IMG/VR virus record: IMGVR_UViG_3300011952_000021
Source: a virus
Lineage: Duplodnaviria; Heunggongvirae; Uroviricota; Caudoviricetes
Reading direction: 5' to 3' (one strand)
Length of the DNA stretch: 7,256 nucleotides
Shown: piece by piece, positions 1,829 through 7,256 of the stretch
Layout of the letters: each line of letters begins with the position of its first letter
How positions within the stretch are numbered: the first letter of the stretch is position 1
The notes under the pieces: generated by a model
Database searches by the model: none
What the model was told of the DNA's origin: nothing
The model's input: only the letters and a program-made list of their open reading frames with translations
Made by a program: the position numbers and the translations under genes

Positions 1829-1886
1829 TTTCTGGTGACGTTTAGCGGTATCAGTTTTACTCCGTGACTGCTCTGCCGCCGTTTTT
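1829..1886 (+). ncRNA. dicF: DicF-like antisense sRNA (ftsZ translation inhibitor) with 3' hairpin and U-tract
   Basis: TTTCTGGTGACGTTTAGCGGTATCAGTTTTACTCCGTGACTGCTCTGCCGCCGTTTTT matches the 53-nt E. coli DicF sequence as I recall it, with 1-2 substitutions. It ends in a GC-rich stem plus TTTTT (1882-1886) and lies inside the operon downstream of the ydfA/ydfB-like genes, as dicF does in Qin. Confidence 0.75.
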
Positions 1887-2060
1887 AAAGTGAATTTTGT
1901 GATGCGGTGAATGCGGCTGAGCGCACGCGGAACAGTTAAAACCAAAAACAGTGTTATGGGTGGATTCTCTGTATCCGACGTTAATTGTTAACTGGTTAAC
2001 GTCACCTGGAGGCACCAGGCACCGCATCAACAAAGTTCATTTGTAAAAATGGAGATAATT

Positions 2061-2282
2061 ATGATTGCACATCACTTCGGAACTGATGAAATACCACGTC
2101 AGTGTGTGACTCCTGGCGATTATGTTCTTCATGAAGGCCGGACATATATTGCCTCGGCAAACAATATTAAAAAGCGAAAACTATATATTCGTAACCTGAC
2201 CACAAAAACATGCATTACTGACCGCATGATTAAAGTCTTCCTCGGTCGTGATGGTTTACCTGTAAAGGCGGAGTCATGGTGA
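2061..2282 (+). CDS. kilR: KilR-like small protein, 73 aa (putative FtsZ/cell-division inhibitor)
   Basis: ATG 2061 with SD GGAGA at 2051-2055 (track ORF 2049..2282, same frame). The 73-aa length and the position immediately upstream of the ydaE-like, racC-like and recE-like genes reproduce the Rac order kilR-ydaE-racC-recE. Identification rests on synteny and length, not verified by alignment. Confidence 0.6.
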
Positions 2283-2452
2283 TGACTAAGAAAATAAAAT
2301 GTGCTTACCACCTTTGCAAAAAAGACGTTGAAGAAAGCAAAGCTATTGAAAGAATGCTTCACTTCATGCACGGGATTTTATCAAAAGACGAACCGAGAAA
2401 ATATTGCAGTGAAGCTTGTGCCGAAAAAGACCAGATGGCACATGAACTTTAA
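2282..2452 (+). CDS. ydaE: Small Cys-rich (putative zinc-binding) protein, 56 aa, YdaE-like
   Basis: Not in the ORF track (under 60 aa). ATG 2282-2284 overlaps the kilR-like TGA (2280-2282) in the string ATGGTGATGA. Product [56 protein letters not shown] has Cys pairs CxxxxC and CxxxC; stop TAA 2450-2452. The 56-aa length and position match Rac YdaE. An alternative in-frame ATG lies at 2276. Confidence 0.5.
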   Translation: MTKKIKCAYHLCKKDVEESKAIERMLHFMHGILSKDEPRKYCSEACAEKDQMAHEL

Positions 2453-2526
2453 TTAATTGACTATTCGAAACTGAATTTATGCCAGAAATGGCAGGTATTC
2501 GCTCAACCTTAATTAAGGAGAAAAAC

Positions 2527-2802
2527 ATGATTACCAATTATGAATCCACTGTTGTAACTACCGATGACATTGTTCACGAGGTGAATCTGGAAGGAAAGCG
2601 CATTGGCTACGTAATTAAAACAGAAAATAAAGAAACCCCATTCACTGTGGTTGATATCGATGGTCCATCAGGCAACGTAAAAACACTTGATGAAGGTGTC
2701 AAAAAAATGTGCCTGGTGCATATCGGAAAGAATCTGCCCGCAGAAAAAAAAGCCGAATTTCTGGCAACTCTAATTGCAATGAAATTAAAAGGTGAAATCT
2801 GA
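2527..2802 (+). CDS. racC: RacC-like hypothetical protein, 91 aa
   Basis: ATG 2527 preceded by a strong SD AAGGAG (2515-2520). Same frame as track ORF 2479..2802, whose upstream start lacks an SD. Length 91 aa and position immediately upstream of the recE-like gene match Rac racC. Confidence 0.65.
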   Translation: MITNYESTVVTTDDIVHEVNLEGKRIGYVIKTENKETPFTVVDIDGPSGNVKTLDEGVKKMCLVHIGKNLPAEKKAEFLATLIAMKLKGEI

Positions 2803-2807
2803 AAGAA

Positions 2808-2832
2808 ATAGCCTGCGTATGGCGCAGGCTAT
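2808..2832 (+). terminator. Stem-loop 5 nt after the racC-like stop (10-bp perfect stem ATAGCCTGCG / CGCAGGCTAT, 5-nt loop); no U-tract
   Basis: Inverted repeat read directly. The following sequence GAACAGTG is not U-rich, so this is at best a weak terminator or an RNA processing/stability element. Confidence 0.25.
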
Positions 2833-2903
2833 GAACAGTGTGTATCCGGCAAGATCATTCACTGAACAAAACGAATTTTAATCTGAGTTGAGGTTAAAAA
2901 ACA

Positions 2904-5518
2904 ATGAGCACAAAACCACTCTTCCTGTTACGGAAAGCGAAAAAATCATCCGGTGAACCTGACGTCGTCCTGTGGGCAAGTGACGATTTTGAATCGACCT
3001 GTGCCACTCTGGACTACCTGATCGTTAAGTCAGGTAAAAAACTGAGCAGCTATTTTAAAGCTGTTGCCACGAATTTTCCTGTCGTTAATGACCTGCCCGC
3101 TGAAGGTGAGATCGATTTTACCTGGAGTGAACGCTATCAACTCAGCAAAGACTCCATGACATGGGAACTAAAACCGGGAGCAGCACCAGACAACGCTCAC
3201 TATCAAGGCAATACCAACGTCAACGGCGAAGACATGACTGAGATTGAGGAGAATATGCTACTCCCAATTTCTGGCCAGGAACTGCCCATTCGTTGGCTTG
3301 CTCAACACGGCAGCGAAAAACCGGTAACGCACGTTTCACGCGACGGACTCCAGGCATTACACATTGCTCGGGCTGAAGAACTACCGGCTGTTACTGCCCT
3401 GGCTGTTTCCCACAAAACCAGCCTGCTCGACCCGCTGGAAATTCGCGAACTCCACAAACTNNNNNNNNNNGGTTCGTGACACTGACAAAGTTTTCCCTAA
3501 TCCTGGTAATTCAAACCTGGGACTGATAACTGCTTTTTTCGAAGCATACCTGAACGCTGACTACACCGATCGAGGACTGCTGACAAAAGAGTGGATGAAG
3601 GGTAATCGTGTTTCACACATCACTCGCACGGCTTCCGGTGCTAATGCTGGCGGCGGAAACCTCACCGATCGCGGCGAAAGTTTCGTACACGATCTGACGT
3701 CACTGGCGCGCGACGTAGCCACTGGCGTACTGGCCCGTTCAATGGACGTGGACATCTATAACCTTCATCCGGCACACGCTAAACGCATTGAGGAAATTAT
3801 CGCTGAAAATAAACCGCCCTTTTCTGTTTTCCGCGACAAATTCATCACCATGCCTGGCGGGCTGGATTATTCCCGCGCCATCGTGGTTGCGTCCGTAAAA
3901 GAAGCACCAATTGGGATCGAGGTCATCCCCGCGCACGTCACTGAATATCTGAACAAAGTACTGACTGAAACCGATCATGCCAACCCTGATCCGGAAATCG
4001 TGGATATTGCCTGCGGTCGCTCCTCTGCCCCGATGCCGCAGCGAGTAACAGAAGAAGGAAAACAGGATGATGAAGAAAAACCGCAACCATCTGGAACAAC
4101 GGCAGTTGAACAGGGAGAGGCTGAAACAATGGAACCGGACGCAACTGAACATCATCAGGACACGCAGCCGCTGGATGCTCAGTCACAGGTAAATTCTGTT
4201 GATGCGAAATATCAGGAACTGCGGGCAGAACTCCATGAAGCCCGGAAAAACATTCCATCAAAAAATCCTGTCGATGCCGATAAATTGCTTGCTGCATCAC
4301 GTGGTGAATTTGTTGACGGAATTAGCGACCCGAACGATCCGAAATGGGTGAAGGGGATTGAAACCCGCGATTCAGTGAACCAGAACCAGCAAGAAACGGA
4401 ACAGAACGACCAGAAAGCGGAACAAAACAGCCCAAATGCGTTACAAAACGAGCCAGAAACGAAACAACCTGAGCCAGTAGCGCAACAGGAAGCGGAAAAA
4501 ATCTGCACCGCCTACGGTCAGACCGGCGGCGGCAACTGCCCTGAATGTGGTGCGNNNNNNNNNNCGGACCGATCCGAAATGGGTAAAGGGGATCCAGTCT
4601 CGCGATTGTGTGTACCAGAACCAGCCAGAAACGGAAAAAACCAGCCCAGATATGAATCAACCTGAGCCAGTAGTGCAACAGGAACCGGAAATAGCCTGCA
4701 ATGCCTGCGGCCAGACTGGCGGGGATAACTGCCCTGACTGTGGTGCGGTGATGGGCGACGCAACATACCAGGAAACATTCGCTGAAGAGAGTCAGGTTGA
4801 AGCTAAGGAAAATGATCCGGAGGAAATGGAAGGCGCTGAACATCCGCACAATGAGAATGCTGGCAGCGATCCGCATCGCGATTGCAGTGATGAAACTGGC
4901 GAAGTCGCAGATCCCGTAATCGTAGAAGACCTAGAGACAGTTATCACATCCACCAGCAGGACGTGTGACCATCTAATGATCGACCTTGAAACCATGGGAA
5001 AAAATCCTGATGCCCCGATTATCTCAATAGGCGCAATATTTTTCGATCCACAAACCGGAGATATGGGACCGGAATTTAGCAAGACCATAGATCTGAATAC
5101 TGCTGGCGGAGTCATTGATCGTGACGTCATTAAATGGTGGCTGAAGCAATCACGTGAAGCGCAGTCTGCCATTATGACCGATGAAATCCCGTTAGATGAT
5201 GCACTGTTACAATTGCGGGAATTTATCGACGAAAACTCCGGTGAATTTTTTGTTCAGGTCTGGGGAAATGGAGCCAACTTCGACAACACGATTTTGCGCC
5301 GTTCATACGAACGGCAGGGGATCCCCTGCCCGTGGCGTTACTACAACGATCGCGATGTACGCACAATCGTTGAGCTGGGGAAAGCCATAGACTTCGATGC
5401 CAGAACGGCTATTCCATTCGAAGGTGAGCGGCATAATGCACTTGATGACGCCCGTTACCAGGCAAAATACGTTTCAGTTATCTGGCAAAAACTGATCCCG
5501 AGTCAGGCTGATTCTTAA
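2904..5518 (+). CDS. recE: RecE-like (exodeoxyribonuclease VIII family N-terminal region) protein, about 868 aa, with a C-terminal DEDDh/DnaQ-like 3'-5' exonuclease domain; reading frame broken by two 10-N runs
   Basis: Track ORFs 2904..3479, 3364..4665 and 4547..5518 are consecutive pieces in frames 0, +1, +2, each switching exactly at an N run; with the N runs removed they join in frame (..ELHK-L-VRDTDK.. and ..CPECGA-RTDPKW..). The N-terminus [29 protein letters not shown].. matches E. coli RecE as I recall it. C-terminal domain motifs: Exo I MIDLETMG (~4981), Exo [13 protein letters not shown] (~5265), Exo [16 protein letters not shown] (~5433). SD GAGG sits about 10 nt upstream of ATG 2904. 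Confidence 0.85.
3461..3470. other. Run of 10 N (assembly/scaffold spacer) inside the recE-like CDS
   Basis: Literal n x10. Flanking codons are only in frame if the true gap length is a multiple of 3, including 0. Confidence 0.95.
4336..4747 (+). repeat. Two diverged tandem in-frame copies of a 59-73 aa unit ([30 protein letters not shown]) inside the recE-like CDS, separated by the second N run
   Basis: Copy 1 at 4336-4554 (73 aa), copy 2 at 4571-4747 (59 aa). Both begin GATCCGAAATGGGT.AAGGGGAT and end CCTGA.TGTGGTGCG. Each carries a C-x2-C ... C-P-x-C-G zinc-ribbon-like Cys pattern. Confidence 0.8.
4555..4564. other. Run of 10 N (assembly/scaffold spacer) at the junction of the two tandem repeat copies
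   Basis: Literal n x10. Frame is restored if the true gap is a multiple of 3. Its placement exactly between repeat copies suggests a repeat-induced assembly break. Confidence 0.95.
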
Positions 5519-5590
5519 TGTTCAACTGTCGCCGGTTGTGACTGGTATTCTGCAACCGGCGCTCGTCTGATGTAAGAGATAAAGAAATCG

Positions 5591-5842
5591 ATGAGCGAAG
5601 TAATCATGATTGTCTCTCCCGGCAAATGGGTATCCGAAGAGCAGTTAATTGCGCTGAAAGGAATAAAAAAAGGTACGTTAAAAAAGGCCCGGGAAAAATC
5701 GTTTATGGAAGGAAGGGAATATAAGCATGTCGCTCATGACGGTATGCCATGGGATAACAGTCCATGCTTTTACAACCTGGAAGAAATTGATCGCTGGATT
5801 GAGCGCCAGGCATCAGCGAGACCAAGACGTCATCTTACTTGA
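5591..5842 (+). CDS. Excisionase-like small DNA-binding protein (Xis family), 83 aa
   Basis: Track ORF 5591..5842, immediately upstream of and co-oriented with the integrase (19-34 nt gap). The GREYKHVAHDG segment resembles the lambda Xis REYLFHESA region. The start is uncertain: ATG 5591 has a weak SD and ATG 5606 is an alternative. Confidence 0.65.
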   Translation: MSEVIMIVSPGKWVSEEQLIALKGIKKGTLKKAREKSFMEGREYKHVAHDGMPWDNSPCFYNLEEIDRWIERQASARPRRHLT

Positions 5843-5876
5843 CTAAAAGCCACACTAACTAATGAGAGAGGTTGAA

Positions 5877-7157
5877 ATGAAATATCCGACAGGCGTGGAA
5901 AACCATGGAGGGAAATTACGTATCTGGTTTGTTTATAAAGGCGTAAGAGTCAGGGAAAATCTGGGGGTTCCTGACACAGCAAAAAACAGGCGCGTTGCAG
6001 GTGAACTACGCGCCTCTGTTTGTTACGCAATAAAAACTGGTGTTTTCGACTATGCAAAACAGTTTCCCTCCTCACGCAATCTGGAAAAATTTGGTGAGGC
6101 CCGACAAGATTTAACCATAAAAGAACTGGCTGAAAAATTTCTGGCACTGAAAGAAACTGAAGTCGCCAAAACATCACTCAACACATACCGTGCCGTCATC
6201 AAAAATATCCTGAGCATAATCGGTGAAAAAAATCTTGCCTCATCGATTAATAAAGAAAAATTACTGGAGGTTCGTAAAGAGCTACTGACTGGATACCAGA
6301 TCCCCAAAAGTAACTATATTGTTACACAACCAGGGAGATCGGCTGTAACTGTAAATAATTACATGACAAATCTTAACGCCGTGTTCCAGTTTGGTGTTGA
6401 TAACGGTTACCTGCCAGATAATCCGTTTAAGGGGATCTCGCCATTAAAGGAATCAAGAACCATTCCGGATCCTCTTTCGCGGGAGGAATTTATCCGTCTT
6501 ATCGATGCGTGCAGAAATCAGCAAGCAAAAAATTTATGGTGTGTTTCTGTTTATACTGGCGTTCGCCCTGGTGAGCTGTGTGCACTTGGATGGGAGGACA
6601 TAGATCTGAAAAATGGAACAATGATGATCAGGAGAAATTTAGCAAAAGACCGTTTCACGGTACCAAAAACACAGGCGGGAACCAATCGGGTCATTCATCT
6701 TATTAAGCCAGCAATCGACGCTCTCCGGAGTCAGATGACATTAACGAGACTGAGCAAAGAGCATATCATTGATGTTCACCTCAGAGAGTATGGCAGAACA
6801 GAAAAACAAAAATGCACCTTTGTTTTTCAACCTGAAGTGTCAGCGAGAGTAAAAAATTATGGTGACCATTTTACCGTTGACTCAATAAGGCAGATGTGGG
6901 ACGCAGCGATAAAACGTGCCGGACTCCGCCATCGAAAATCATATCAGTCGAGACATACTTATGCCTGCTGGTCGCTGACAGCTGGTGCTAACCCGGCATT
7001 TATAGCAAACCAGATGGGCCATGCAGATGCGCAAATGGTATTTCAGGTATACGGAAAATGGATGTCTGAAAACAATAATGCACAGGTAGCTTTGTTAAAT
7101 ACACAGTTAAGCGAGTTTGCCCCAACCATGCCCCATAACGAAGCAATGAAAAATTAA
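5877..7157 (+). CDS. Lambda-family tyrosine integrase (site-specific recombinase, phage integrase family) with N-terminal arm-binding-type domain
   Basis: Track ORF 5862..7157; the preferred start is ATG 5877 (MKYPTG..) because SD GAGAGAGG lies at 5864-5871. C-terminal catalytic signature: R in VYTGVRPGE, then HRKSYQSRHTYACW (H-x-x-R/H box) and GHADAQMVFQVYGKW (His plus Tyr nucleophile). The xis-int order with int at the element edge is the lambda-like arrangement. Confidence 0.95.
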   Translation: MKYPTGVENHGGKLRIWFVYKGVRVRENLGVPDTAKNRRVAGELRASVCYAIKTGVFDYAKQFPSSRNLEKFGEARQDLTIKELAEKFLALKETEVAKTSLNTYRAVIKNILSIIGEKNLASSINKEKLLEVRKELLTGYQIPKSNYIVTQPGRSAVTVNNYMTNLNAVFQFGVDNGYLPDNPFKGISPLKESRTIPDPLSREEFIRLIDACRNQQAKNLWCVSVYTGVRPGELCALGWEDIDLKNGTMMIRRNLAKDRFTVPKTQAGTNRVIHLIKPAIDALRSQMTLTRLSKEHIIDVHLREYGRTEKQKCTFVFQPEVSARVKNYGDHFTVDSIRQMWDAAIKRAGLRHRKSYQSRHTYACWSLTAGANPAFIANQMGHADAQMVFQVYGKWMSENNNAQVALLNTQLSEFAPTMPHNEAMKN

Positions 7158-7158
7158 T

Positions 7159-7254
7159 TTAATATTTATCAAATAGTTGACACGTATGACTCTTGAAATC
7201 CATAAATTCAAGCGCAGTGCCCAGCCATCCCGATACTGCTGCTTTCACCAAATC
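7159..7254 (-). CDS. Possible 3' end of a convergent gene (host gene or att-restored terminus), last 31 codons only
   Basis: The reverse strand is stop-free from the window end to a TAA (complement of 7159-7161) just 2 nt beyond the integrase stop: ..DLVKAAVSGWLGTALEFMDFKSHTCQLFDKY*. It is very short and partial, and frame choice is uncertain because another reverse frame also reads ..GFGESSSIGMAGHCA*. Confidence 0.2.
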   Translation of the reverse strand, partial: DLVKAAVSGWLGTALEFMDFKSHTCQLFDKY

Positions 7255-7256
7255 CT

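Follow-up and report, generated by a model that had tools for sequence, protein, structure and literature searches.

RecE, the exonuclease of the Rac prophage of Escherichia coli, is a workhorse of recombineering. Its nuclease domain has been assigned to residues 564–866 and the N-terminal ~600 residues are without known function; full-length RecE improves linear–linear recombination (PMC11611040). The gene considered here (positions 2904–5518) joins a RecE-like front to a predicted 3′–5′ exonuclease head of the DEDDh class and has no annealase beside it. It lies on a stretch of DNA from a tailed phage (Caudoviricetes; IMG/VR record IMGVR_UViG_3300011952_000021), referred to below as the window; all coordinates are those of the whole 7,256-nucleotide (nt) window, L-numbers denote the related loci compared, and P-numbers denote representative proteins.

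Two further described systems bear on this gene. DexA of phage T4 is a 3′–5′ DNA exonuclease (T4 record annotation; PMC12153337), and a survey of phage recombination modules (PMC12315714; Genome Research 2025) takes phage Tritos as the prototype of a class that has a nuclease but no single-strand annealing protein (SAP), no single-stranded DNA-binding protein (SSB), and no anti-RecBCD function, with many Chi sites (7–21 on the top strand in its Table 1). The window gene falls in this nuclease-only "Tritos" class.

A DEDDh exonuclease domain at the C terminus

The gene runs on the + strand from an ATG at 2904 to a TAA at 5516–5518, and two runs of ten Ns (3461–3470 and 4555–4564) split its open reading frame (ORF) into three pieces: 2904–3458 (185 amino acids, aa), 3472–4554 (361 aa), and 4565–5515 (317 aa). 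Its architecture and family assignment are close to certain. The head, of 180 residues, occupies 4945–5518 (+ strand) and is 99.7% identical to the Qin-type E. coli prophage locus L010. It matches Pfam family PF16473 (Rv2179c-like) with E 1.2e-66 and 224.2 bits, over residues 136–307 of the third piece and positions 2–177 of the 177 in the profile; the gathering threshold of that family is 27 bits, and the head, being far above it, is a member. The third piece additionally gives a weak RNase_T match.

The three DnaQ-family motifs (Exo I, DxE; Exo II, Nx2-3(F/Y)D; Exo III, Hx4D) that a preliminary description of the stretch had picked out occur in order, as D-L-E (4982–4990), N-F-D (ending at 5284), and H-N-A-L-D-D (5432–5449). 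The catalytic codons within them (D 4982–4984, E 4988–4990, D 5282–5284, H 5432–5434, and D 5447–5449, all on the + strand) align with the catalytic residues D7, E9, D119, H186, and D191 of T4 DexA. The window, Tritos, and stand-alone homologues of 180–190 aa from E. coli, Klebsiella, Salmonella, and Pluralibacter all keep the five, which are invariant or nearly so across 35 homologues.

Searched against PDB sequences, the head finds T4 DexA (8KEL, 8KEN) at E 3.7e-7 and no other match below E 0.8. DexA itself belongs to PF16473 (79.9 bits), and the family therefore holds a DNase besides the ribonuclease (RNase) after which it is named. An AlphaFold2 model of the head (mean predicted local distance difference test score, pLDDT, of 86; predicted template modelling score, pTM, of 0.84) also has T4 DexA as its best Foldseek match (8KEN/8KEL; E 1e-10, template modelling (TM) score 0.71–0.75), followed by RNase T, REXO2/Orn, and a Cas-associated DnaQ domain. 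With 131 PDB fold matches at E ≤ 0.001, the 50 listed ones being led by these proteins, the model shows an RNase H-like α/β fold. A PD-(D/E)XK fold for the C terminus, as in RecE and lambda Exo, was considered and rejected: Pfam assigns PF16473, the fold search returns DEDDh proteins, and there is no PD-(D/E)XK structure among the 50 fold matches listed.

The ratio of non-synonymous to synonymous substitution rates (dN/dS) of the 180-codon head is 0.08–0.28 in six lineages, mostly around 0.1. Together with intact ORFs of 814–823 aa in closed genomes and in phages Tritos and mEp460, this ratio of ~0.1 indicates that the gene is functional. The name "exodeoxyribonuclease VIII" is wrong for genes that bear the DEDDh head.

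The RecE-like front and the breakpoint

The front of the gene belongs to the RecE family by its N-terminal domain (Exonuc_VIII, PF06630; 2904–3460, + strand, E 2e-99), which is non-catalytic and 99.5% identical in aa sequence to residues 1–185 of K-12-type RecE. An all-helical, conserved middle domain of the RecE/YdfE scaffold lies at 3679–4041 (+ strand). The NCBIfam RecE equivalog model, NF007259, is covered over positions 1–608 of 877 only (299, 704, and 237 bits for the three pieces), and the score of more than 1269 bits that defines full-length members, C-terminal PD-(D/E)XK domain included, is not reached; an intact relative, L001, scores 1171 bits. The union of a RecE-like front with a DEDDh C terminus, as first described, is borne out.

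In the DNA alignment, the window tracks Rac recE up to position 4944 (..VADPVIVED) and the DEDDh-bearing family from 4945 onwards, which places the end of RecE homology at K-12 residue ~599–601. The crystallised RecE fragment starts at residue 606, and the PDDEXK domain PF12684 is found by Pfam at residues 615–850 of K-12-type RecE; a Pfam scan of the window gene gives no PF12684 match. The swap of nuclease modules that had been proposed, with DEDDh replacing PD-(D/E)XK, thus falls exactly at the domain boundary. The earlier estimate of ~675 RecE-like residues was too high, because a linker unit of ~70 residues had been counted twice.

That unit (DPKWVKG...CPECGA) is present in two forms. Copy 1 (4332–4554, + strand) is the long, Qin/YdfE-like form and is 96.5% identical to L010, as measured over 4273–4554; its Cys motif is degenerate (CTAY, not CTAC), likewise in L010. 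Copy 2 is short and Rac-like and, with the acidic Rac-type linker behind it, fills 4565–4944 (+ strand; 98.4% identical to recE of Rac locus L099, 92.5% to that of K-12). A Cys4-like motif, CxxC-x8-CxxC, lies within it at 4697–4741, and 32 of 135 linker residues are D or E; this acidic linker is probably disordered.

The two N runs differ in kind. The first (3461–3470) is a zero-length scaffold join, since its flanks, AAACT on the left and GGTTCGT on the right, give K185-L186-V187 of RecE with nothing lost. The second (4555–4564) sits inside the duplicated linker unit and, without its Ns, keeps the frame: the left contig ends in ..NCPECGA and the right begins with RTDPKWVKG.., so that the unit (DPKWVKG...CPxCGA) flanks the gap on both sides as a direct repeat (4332–4554 and 4567–4747). 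It is single-copy in all closed relatives examined, K-12 RecE, MLI114, O157, Tritos, and L010 among them. Homologues from draft assemblies routinely begin at DPKWVKG, which marks this position as a habitual assembly break, and the two units are either a true tandem duplication or two overlapping contigs. The conclusion holds in both cases, because the junction between RecE-type linker and DEDDh head is independent of the gaps, lying wholly within the right-hand contig, where the sequence common to both parents is only ~5 nt long, because the left contig is YdfE-like already from ~4350, and because both outer arms match one prophage type.

Missing partners

The absence of an annealase gene between the nuclease and xis, reported from the first reading, stands. 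The spacer from the stop codon to the xis ATG at 5591 is 72 base pairs (bp) long; neither the window nor 14 related loci give a tblastn match to RecT, RecE residues 600–866, RalR, or RcbA, and no annealase Pfam family appears between repressor and int in the gene tables of 10 relatives. A recT hidden in the N gaps was considered and rejected, because stop codon, spacer, and xis run on in one contig. The gene does not qualify as a two-component recombinase of the RecET/Red kind: no annealase gene of the RecT/Redβ, Erf, or Rad52/Sak type is adjacent and the head is DEDDh, not a PD-(D/E)XK 5′–3′ exonuclease. The spacer itself contains a perfect 9-bp inverted repeat at 5530–5561 (CGCCGGTTG ... CAACCGGCG) with a 14-nt loop and no run of Ts after it.

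A common, catalogued family

The rarity implied by the preliminary description is not supported by database counts. The DEDDh head with the start of xis (4945–5650) is covered over at least 80% of its length in 4,046 of 5,426 complete E. coli genomes (about three quarters), mostly at 95–99% identity. In all sampled rows, the matched feature is named "exonuclease", "3′-5′ exonuclease", or "3′-5′ exoribonuclease domain-containing protein", and the same excisionase lies under the match in roughly the upper two thirds of the sampled ranking. Closed genomes carry uninterrupted 814-aa genes with PF06630 and PF16473 (MLI114, near ompW; an O157 strain, near ynfA) and, likewise, uninterrupted 823-aa genes.

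The gene is also carried by the phage records Tritos, mEp460, and HannyBb. Both Tritos and mEp460 have the annealase-free order dicB-ydfD-exonuclease(823 aa)-xis-int, and the 823-aa protein has YdfE_N, YdfE_C, and Rv2179c-like as its precomputed Pfam hits; in PHROGs the family is phrog_2082. The ydfE pseudogene of K-12 Qin (b1577; L018:4079-4999), which is cut by the insertion sequence (IS) IS2, is 99% identical to Tritos residues 1–256. The family can therefore be identified as full-length YdfE, whose nuclease end has been lost in K-12. Beyond these, tblastn with the DEDDh domain reaches 1,196 phage records, which range from lambdoid to Vibrio, Acinetobacter, and T4-like phages, and stand-alone versions of 180–190 aa occur in E. 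coli, Klebsiella, Salmonella, and Enterobacter. The window copy is accordingly placed by its alignments as a new recombinant, with a Rac front and a Qin back, of a very common and catalogued family.

A Rac–Qin mosaic

Gene order in the window matches that of K-12 Qin (dicA-ydfABC-dicF-dicB-ydfD-ydfE-intQ). A helix-turn-helix (HTH) repressor in the dicA position (261–668, + strand; Pfam HTH_3 E 1.5e-14) marks the start of the early-left region, and the small RNA DicF follows at 1830–1881 (+ strand; Rfam RF00039, 64.8 bits against a gathering score of 48). Where the Qin type then has dicB-ydfD, the window has the Rac-type genes kilR (2049–2282), ydaE (2276–2452), and racC (2527–2802, or from 2479), all on the + strand and named from the L005 annotation. 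Downstream of the nuclease gene lie a DUF1233-type excisionase gene (5591–5842, + strand; Pfam PF06806 E 1.6e-31) and the tyrosine integrase gene of Qin-site prophages (5862–7157, + strand; Pfam Arm-DNA-bind_2 and Phage_integrase). Of the 10 E. coli loci listed with the identical integrase protein, 9 have it next to rspB-/rspA-type genes and ynfA, in the K-12 Qin order, and all 10 have an 823-aa YdfE-type gene and xis ahead of it.

Nearest relatives change repeatedly along the window. Positions 1–2041 are nearest to L010 (99.8%), 2042 to ~4349 to Rac of K-12 (L005) and to L099 (99.6–99.8%, and 99.7–99.8% over 2042–3460), ~4350–4554 again to L010 (the 96.5% given above), 4567–4944 to Rac (L099; 98.4%), and 4945–7256 once more to L010 (99.7–100%). 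The left switch from Qin to Rac falls within a 22-nt stretch identical in both parents, GTCACCTGGAGGCACCAGGCAC (on the side of window positions 1830–2045), and the switch from Rac to Qin at ~4350 comes after a 14-mer common to both, GATCCGAAATGGGT. As read from these alignments, the window copy is a recent recombinant: a Qin-type prophage contributed the DicA-like repressor, dicF, the ydfE 3′ end, xis, and int, and the dicB-ydfD-ydfE 5′ part has been replaced by the Rac kilR-ydaE-racC-recE 5′ part.

The exact Rac-to-DEDDh junction is absent from the 5,426 complete E. coli genomes (by megablast, the best being 84–86% identity over 4565–5100), and a search for it in IMG/VR, GTDB representative genomes, and JGI metagenome contigs returned nothing. 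The RacC allele of the window occurs in three contigs, one with canonical Rac recE-recT and two short ones ending inside recE, and the mosaic is in none of these.

The sole Chi octamer in the window is at 4950–4957 on the − strand (GCTGGTGG, read as CCACCAGC on the + strand), 5 bp past the mosaic junction and inside the DEDDh module, and CCACCAGC is kept in all YdfE-type genes aligned. This conserved Chi might help to make the module boundary a recombination hotspot.

Two further features of the region were recorded. The interval between racC and the nuclease gene holds a 10-pair hairpin (2808–2832) with a terminator-like score on the − strand only. At the position of Rac sieB, a 205-aa ORF (952–1569, + strand) that is called as a gene in relatives and has no Pfam family overlaps a 106-aa ORF on the − strand (1231–1551) that reads like a small membrane protein.

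Other heads on the same scaffold

A HMMER search with the middle domain against 1.84 billion representatives gave 99 clusters, of which 61 long ones were classified. Full-length architectures come from the HMMER scan, as searches for homologous proteins returned proteins of up to ~336 aa. The head is RecE-type PD-(D/E)XK in 13 clusters, DEDDh in 10, and RecT fused directly, in a deletion form, in one; the remaining 37 have none of these. The directly fused protein, P0270 (703 aa), joins the RecE N-terminal and middle domains to RecT (516–703) without a nuclease domain and is apparently a deletion derivative of recE-recT.

Among the 37, seven (P0274, P0281, P0285, P0286, P0294, P0308, and P0336) end in a tail of ~280 aa, marked by KKSLTDAxKKALSxLGF..LGLYD, in place of the nuclease. 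It matches Rad52_Rad22 more often than any other Pfam family (in 29 of 40 diverse copies, with a best E of 1.2e-4); the bit scores reported, for two copies, are ~18 bits, below the 20.3-bit cutoff. The tail is collinear with the N-terminal domain of human RAD52 over 113–116 columns (hhalign E 0.017–0.02); a profile search against PDB sequences gave no match. At 80 IMG/VR loci (L019–L098, e.g., L019:4474-6843), the tail is always the C terminus of an ORF of 690–800 aa, and no DEDDh, PD-(D/E)XK, or RecT ORF lies within 6 kb of it. These features point to a probable Rad52-like annealase head, notwithstanding the PHROGs label "exonuclease". Such proteins are probably the "RecE-2" of PMC12315714, described there as lacking a nuclease domain. 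A fourth head, with the motif QGLCANP at its tail, is found in 15 of the 37 (P0272, P0279, P0296, P0341, and 11 others); it corresponds to phrog_26058 and has no Pfam match.

One scaffold thus accommodates at least four alternative heads, and the remaining interest lies in what this scaffold and the DEDDh head do. The scaffold of the recombineering enzyme naturally carries a nuclease of predicted opposite polarity without an annealase and, in other phages, a probable annealase without a nuclease. These combinations show that its job is independent of RecT and of 5′–3′ resection, and the natural chimeras form a set with which that job could be tested. The DEDDh version is among the commonest E. 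coli prophage genes, O157:H7 included, and is present in viable phages without Gam and annealase, so that its activity bears on the recombination and replication of such phages and, given the report of a defence nuclease among DexA homologues, on prophage-conferred immunity as well.

Proposed function

The reading preferred here, which is narrowly probable as a whole, is that the gene occupies a modular exonuclease slot of Rac/Qin-type lambdoid prophages and encodes a 3′–5′ exonuclease that processes DNA ends. Its parts differ in strength. From the conserved motifs and the modelled fold, the protein is very likely an active 3′–5′ exonuclease. Its substrate is probably DNA, because DexA is the nearest relative, a DNA exonuclease occupies this place in RecE, and recombination heads are found on the scaffold elsewhere. 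The role in end processing is the weakest step and is put forward tentatively.

The gene would be transcribed with the early-left genes after induction or infection, as suggested by the Qin dicA-region order and the lack of a plus-strand promoter-like or terminator-like site. The product would then act as a Mg2+-dependent 3′–5′ exonuclease on DNA 3′ ends, as T4 DexA does, with the common scaffold giving the head the location or partner that RecE has. No phage annealase would be involved, and the phages concerned also have no RecBCD inhibitor and are reported to be Chi-rich; for these reasons its likeliest role would be to trim or blunt DNA ends for host RecBCD/RecA, or it may clear 3′ tails in replication and recombination. 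An independent, moron-like transcription unit was considered and rejected on the same lack of plus-strand sites, which is a weak test.

Several points weigh against this proposal. Both the choice between DNA and RNA and the role are drawn from a relative at 21–27% identity. The search for promoter-like and terminator-like sites is, as noted, a weak test. No recognisable fold relative was found for the middle domain, which makes a targeting role of the scaffold a guess. The N-terminal 547 residues are tied to the DEDDh part by the scaffold join across gap 2. The cohesive ends of lambda-type phages are 5′ overhangs, so that there is no obvious need for 3′ trimming. According to the published survey of phage recombination modules (PMC12315714), 3′–5′ exonucleases usually inhibit and do not promote homologous recombination.

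Other functions for the head are improbable to much the same degree. One is anti-phage defence by the prophage, with the head degrading the modified DNA of superinfecting phages: the E. coli DexA homologue EcD ("HREX"; HAK9828821.1) is reported to cut T4 DNA containing 5-hydroxymethylcytosine (5hmC), to spare unmodified DNA, and to protect against T4 (PMC12153337). The window domain is a DexA homologue too; the head is kept in ~75% of complete E. coli genomes, cryptic prophages included, and the genera with stand-alone versions (E. coli, Klebsiella, Salmonella, and Enterobacter) are those in which the same paper places bacterial DexA homologues. However, the proposed 5hmC-recognition residues of DexA appear to be changed in the window (W152 aligns with Y, D169 with A), and the tetramer residue D90 appears to be kept as D and not lost as the HREX type requires, the alignment being uncertain at these sites; the EcD accession is not among the members listed for 10 clusters, so that its link to the window domain is a tentative lead, and PADLOC gives a weak generic DEDDh match only. 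Moreover, viable phages carry the gene, which lies under repressor control in the early-left region and lacks its own promoter-like site. The head might instead be an exoribonuclease acting on phage or host RNA, such as early-left or DicF 3′ ends or short oligoribonucleotides. The family is named after the Mycobacterium tuberculosis exoribonuclease Rv2179c, the fold matches ranking next after DexA are RNase T, REXO2, and Orn (E 2e-8 to 4e-7), and dicF lies upstream on the same strand. Yet the DNase DexA is best by both sequence and fold, whereas the Rv2179c chain is absent at E ≤ 1 among PDB sequences (beyond DexA, only unrelated RNA polymerase chains appear) and among the 50 fold matches listed; the window head takes the place of a DNA exonuclease, on a scaffold that bears DNA-recombination heads in other proteins, and RNase T too trims DNA 3′ ends, its matched PDB entries being DNA complexes. 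The original wording, "possibly 3′–5′ DNA or RNA" degradation, is accordingly weakened in its RNA part.

Two explanations would deny the gene any such role, and both are less credible still. The RecE-like front and DEDDh back could be pieces of two prophage genes that a scaffolder joined at gap 2, which is quite improbable. In its favour, gap 2 interrupts a unit found once in each closed relative examined, at a place where draft assemblies routinely break; copies 1 and 2 of the linker differ in their nearest relatives, the parents are identical over short stretches (22 nt and 14 nt) at the switch points, and the exact mosaic is in no closed genome. Broader queries also find a median of two matching places per matching genome, as against one for the DEDDh head. 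Against this, the 4944/4945 junction is within one contig, where a k-mer graph could not create it from parents sharing ~5 nt; the left contig, YdfE-like from ~4350, was itself heading to a DEDDh end; both outer arms match L010 (99.8% and 100%); both gaps are in frame without Ns; and uninterrupted genes combining PF06630 and DEDDh exist in closed genomes. A functionless, decaying remnant of a cryptic prophage is the least probable of all. It would fit the IS2-cut ydfE of K-12, the many fragmentary database entries, and the IS elements that interrupt some relatives (H9, H12); it fits poorly with a dN/dS of ~0.1 across lineages, with near-invariant catalytic residues in 35 homologues, and with full-length ORFs in inducible or cultured phages, and most "partial" entries are contig-end artefacts.

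Beyond the preferred proposal of a DNA-end-processing exonuclease, a broader and unlikely idea is that the RecE/YdfE N-terminal scaffold is a head-agnostic recombination platform that docks any C-terminal head at the same site or partner. The heads seen on it comprise exonucleases of 5′–3′ and of 3′–5′ type, the probable Rad52-like annealase, and the fourth head with the QGLCANP motif. If the idea were true, the DEDDh version would represent an annealase-free strategy in which a phage 3′–5′ exonuclease prepares ends for host RecBCD–Chi–RecA in lambdoid phages that have neither Gam nor an annealase and are reported in the survey to be Chi-rich, and the conserved Chi site 5 bp inside the DEDDh module would explain the boundary as a hotspot of prophage recombination.

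Comparison with known systems

Compared with Rac RecE, the window protein is homologous from residue 1 to ~599, and its gene has the same operon slot after kilR-ydaE-racC. It differs in that the PD-(D/E)XK 5′–3′ exonuclease (RecE 606–866), recT, ralR, and rcbA are missing, and the predicted polarity of its head is opposite to that of RecE.

T4 DexA resembles the window head in its PF16473 membership, DEDDh residues, and position as best structural match. Identity between the two is 21–27%, however, and DexA is a free-standing protein of 227 aa with extra loops and helices, from a virulent phage, whose proposed 5hmC-recognition residues do not appear to be conserved in the window head. M. tuberculosis Rv2179c belongs to the same Pfam family and is an exoribonuclease according to the family description.

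The 814-aa exonuclease of the O157:H7/MLI114 type has the same plan as the window protein, with a RecE-like N terminus (partial PF06630), middle domain, linker, and DEDDh head, and then excisionase and integrase genes. Its N-terminal domain is only 63–66% identical to that of the window, its linker is of the YdfE type, and it has one linker unit, not two.

Closest of all in its back half is full-length YdfE of Qin-type phages. The first ~480 residues of the window protein are of the Rac RecE type (PF06630), unlike YdfE_N (PF27430), an assignment that rests on pairwise comparison and on precomputed hits for relatives; no BLASTP similarity is found between the window N terminus and Tritos residues 1–261. 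The linker next to the head is Rac-like, and kilR-ydaE-racC, not dicB-ydfD, lies upstream. Otherwise the two agree: window head, spacer, xis, and int are 99.7–100% identical to L010, the middle domain and linker follow the same plan, and the gene is the last before xis, with no annealase, its Rv2179c-like head being immediately followed by the DUF1233 excisionase and then the Qin-site integrase, as in the YdfE family.

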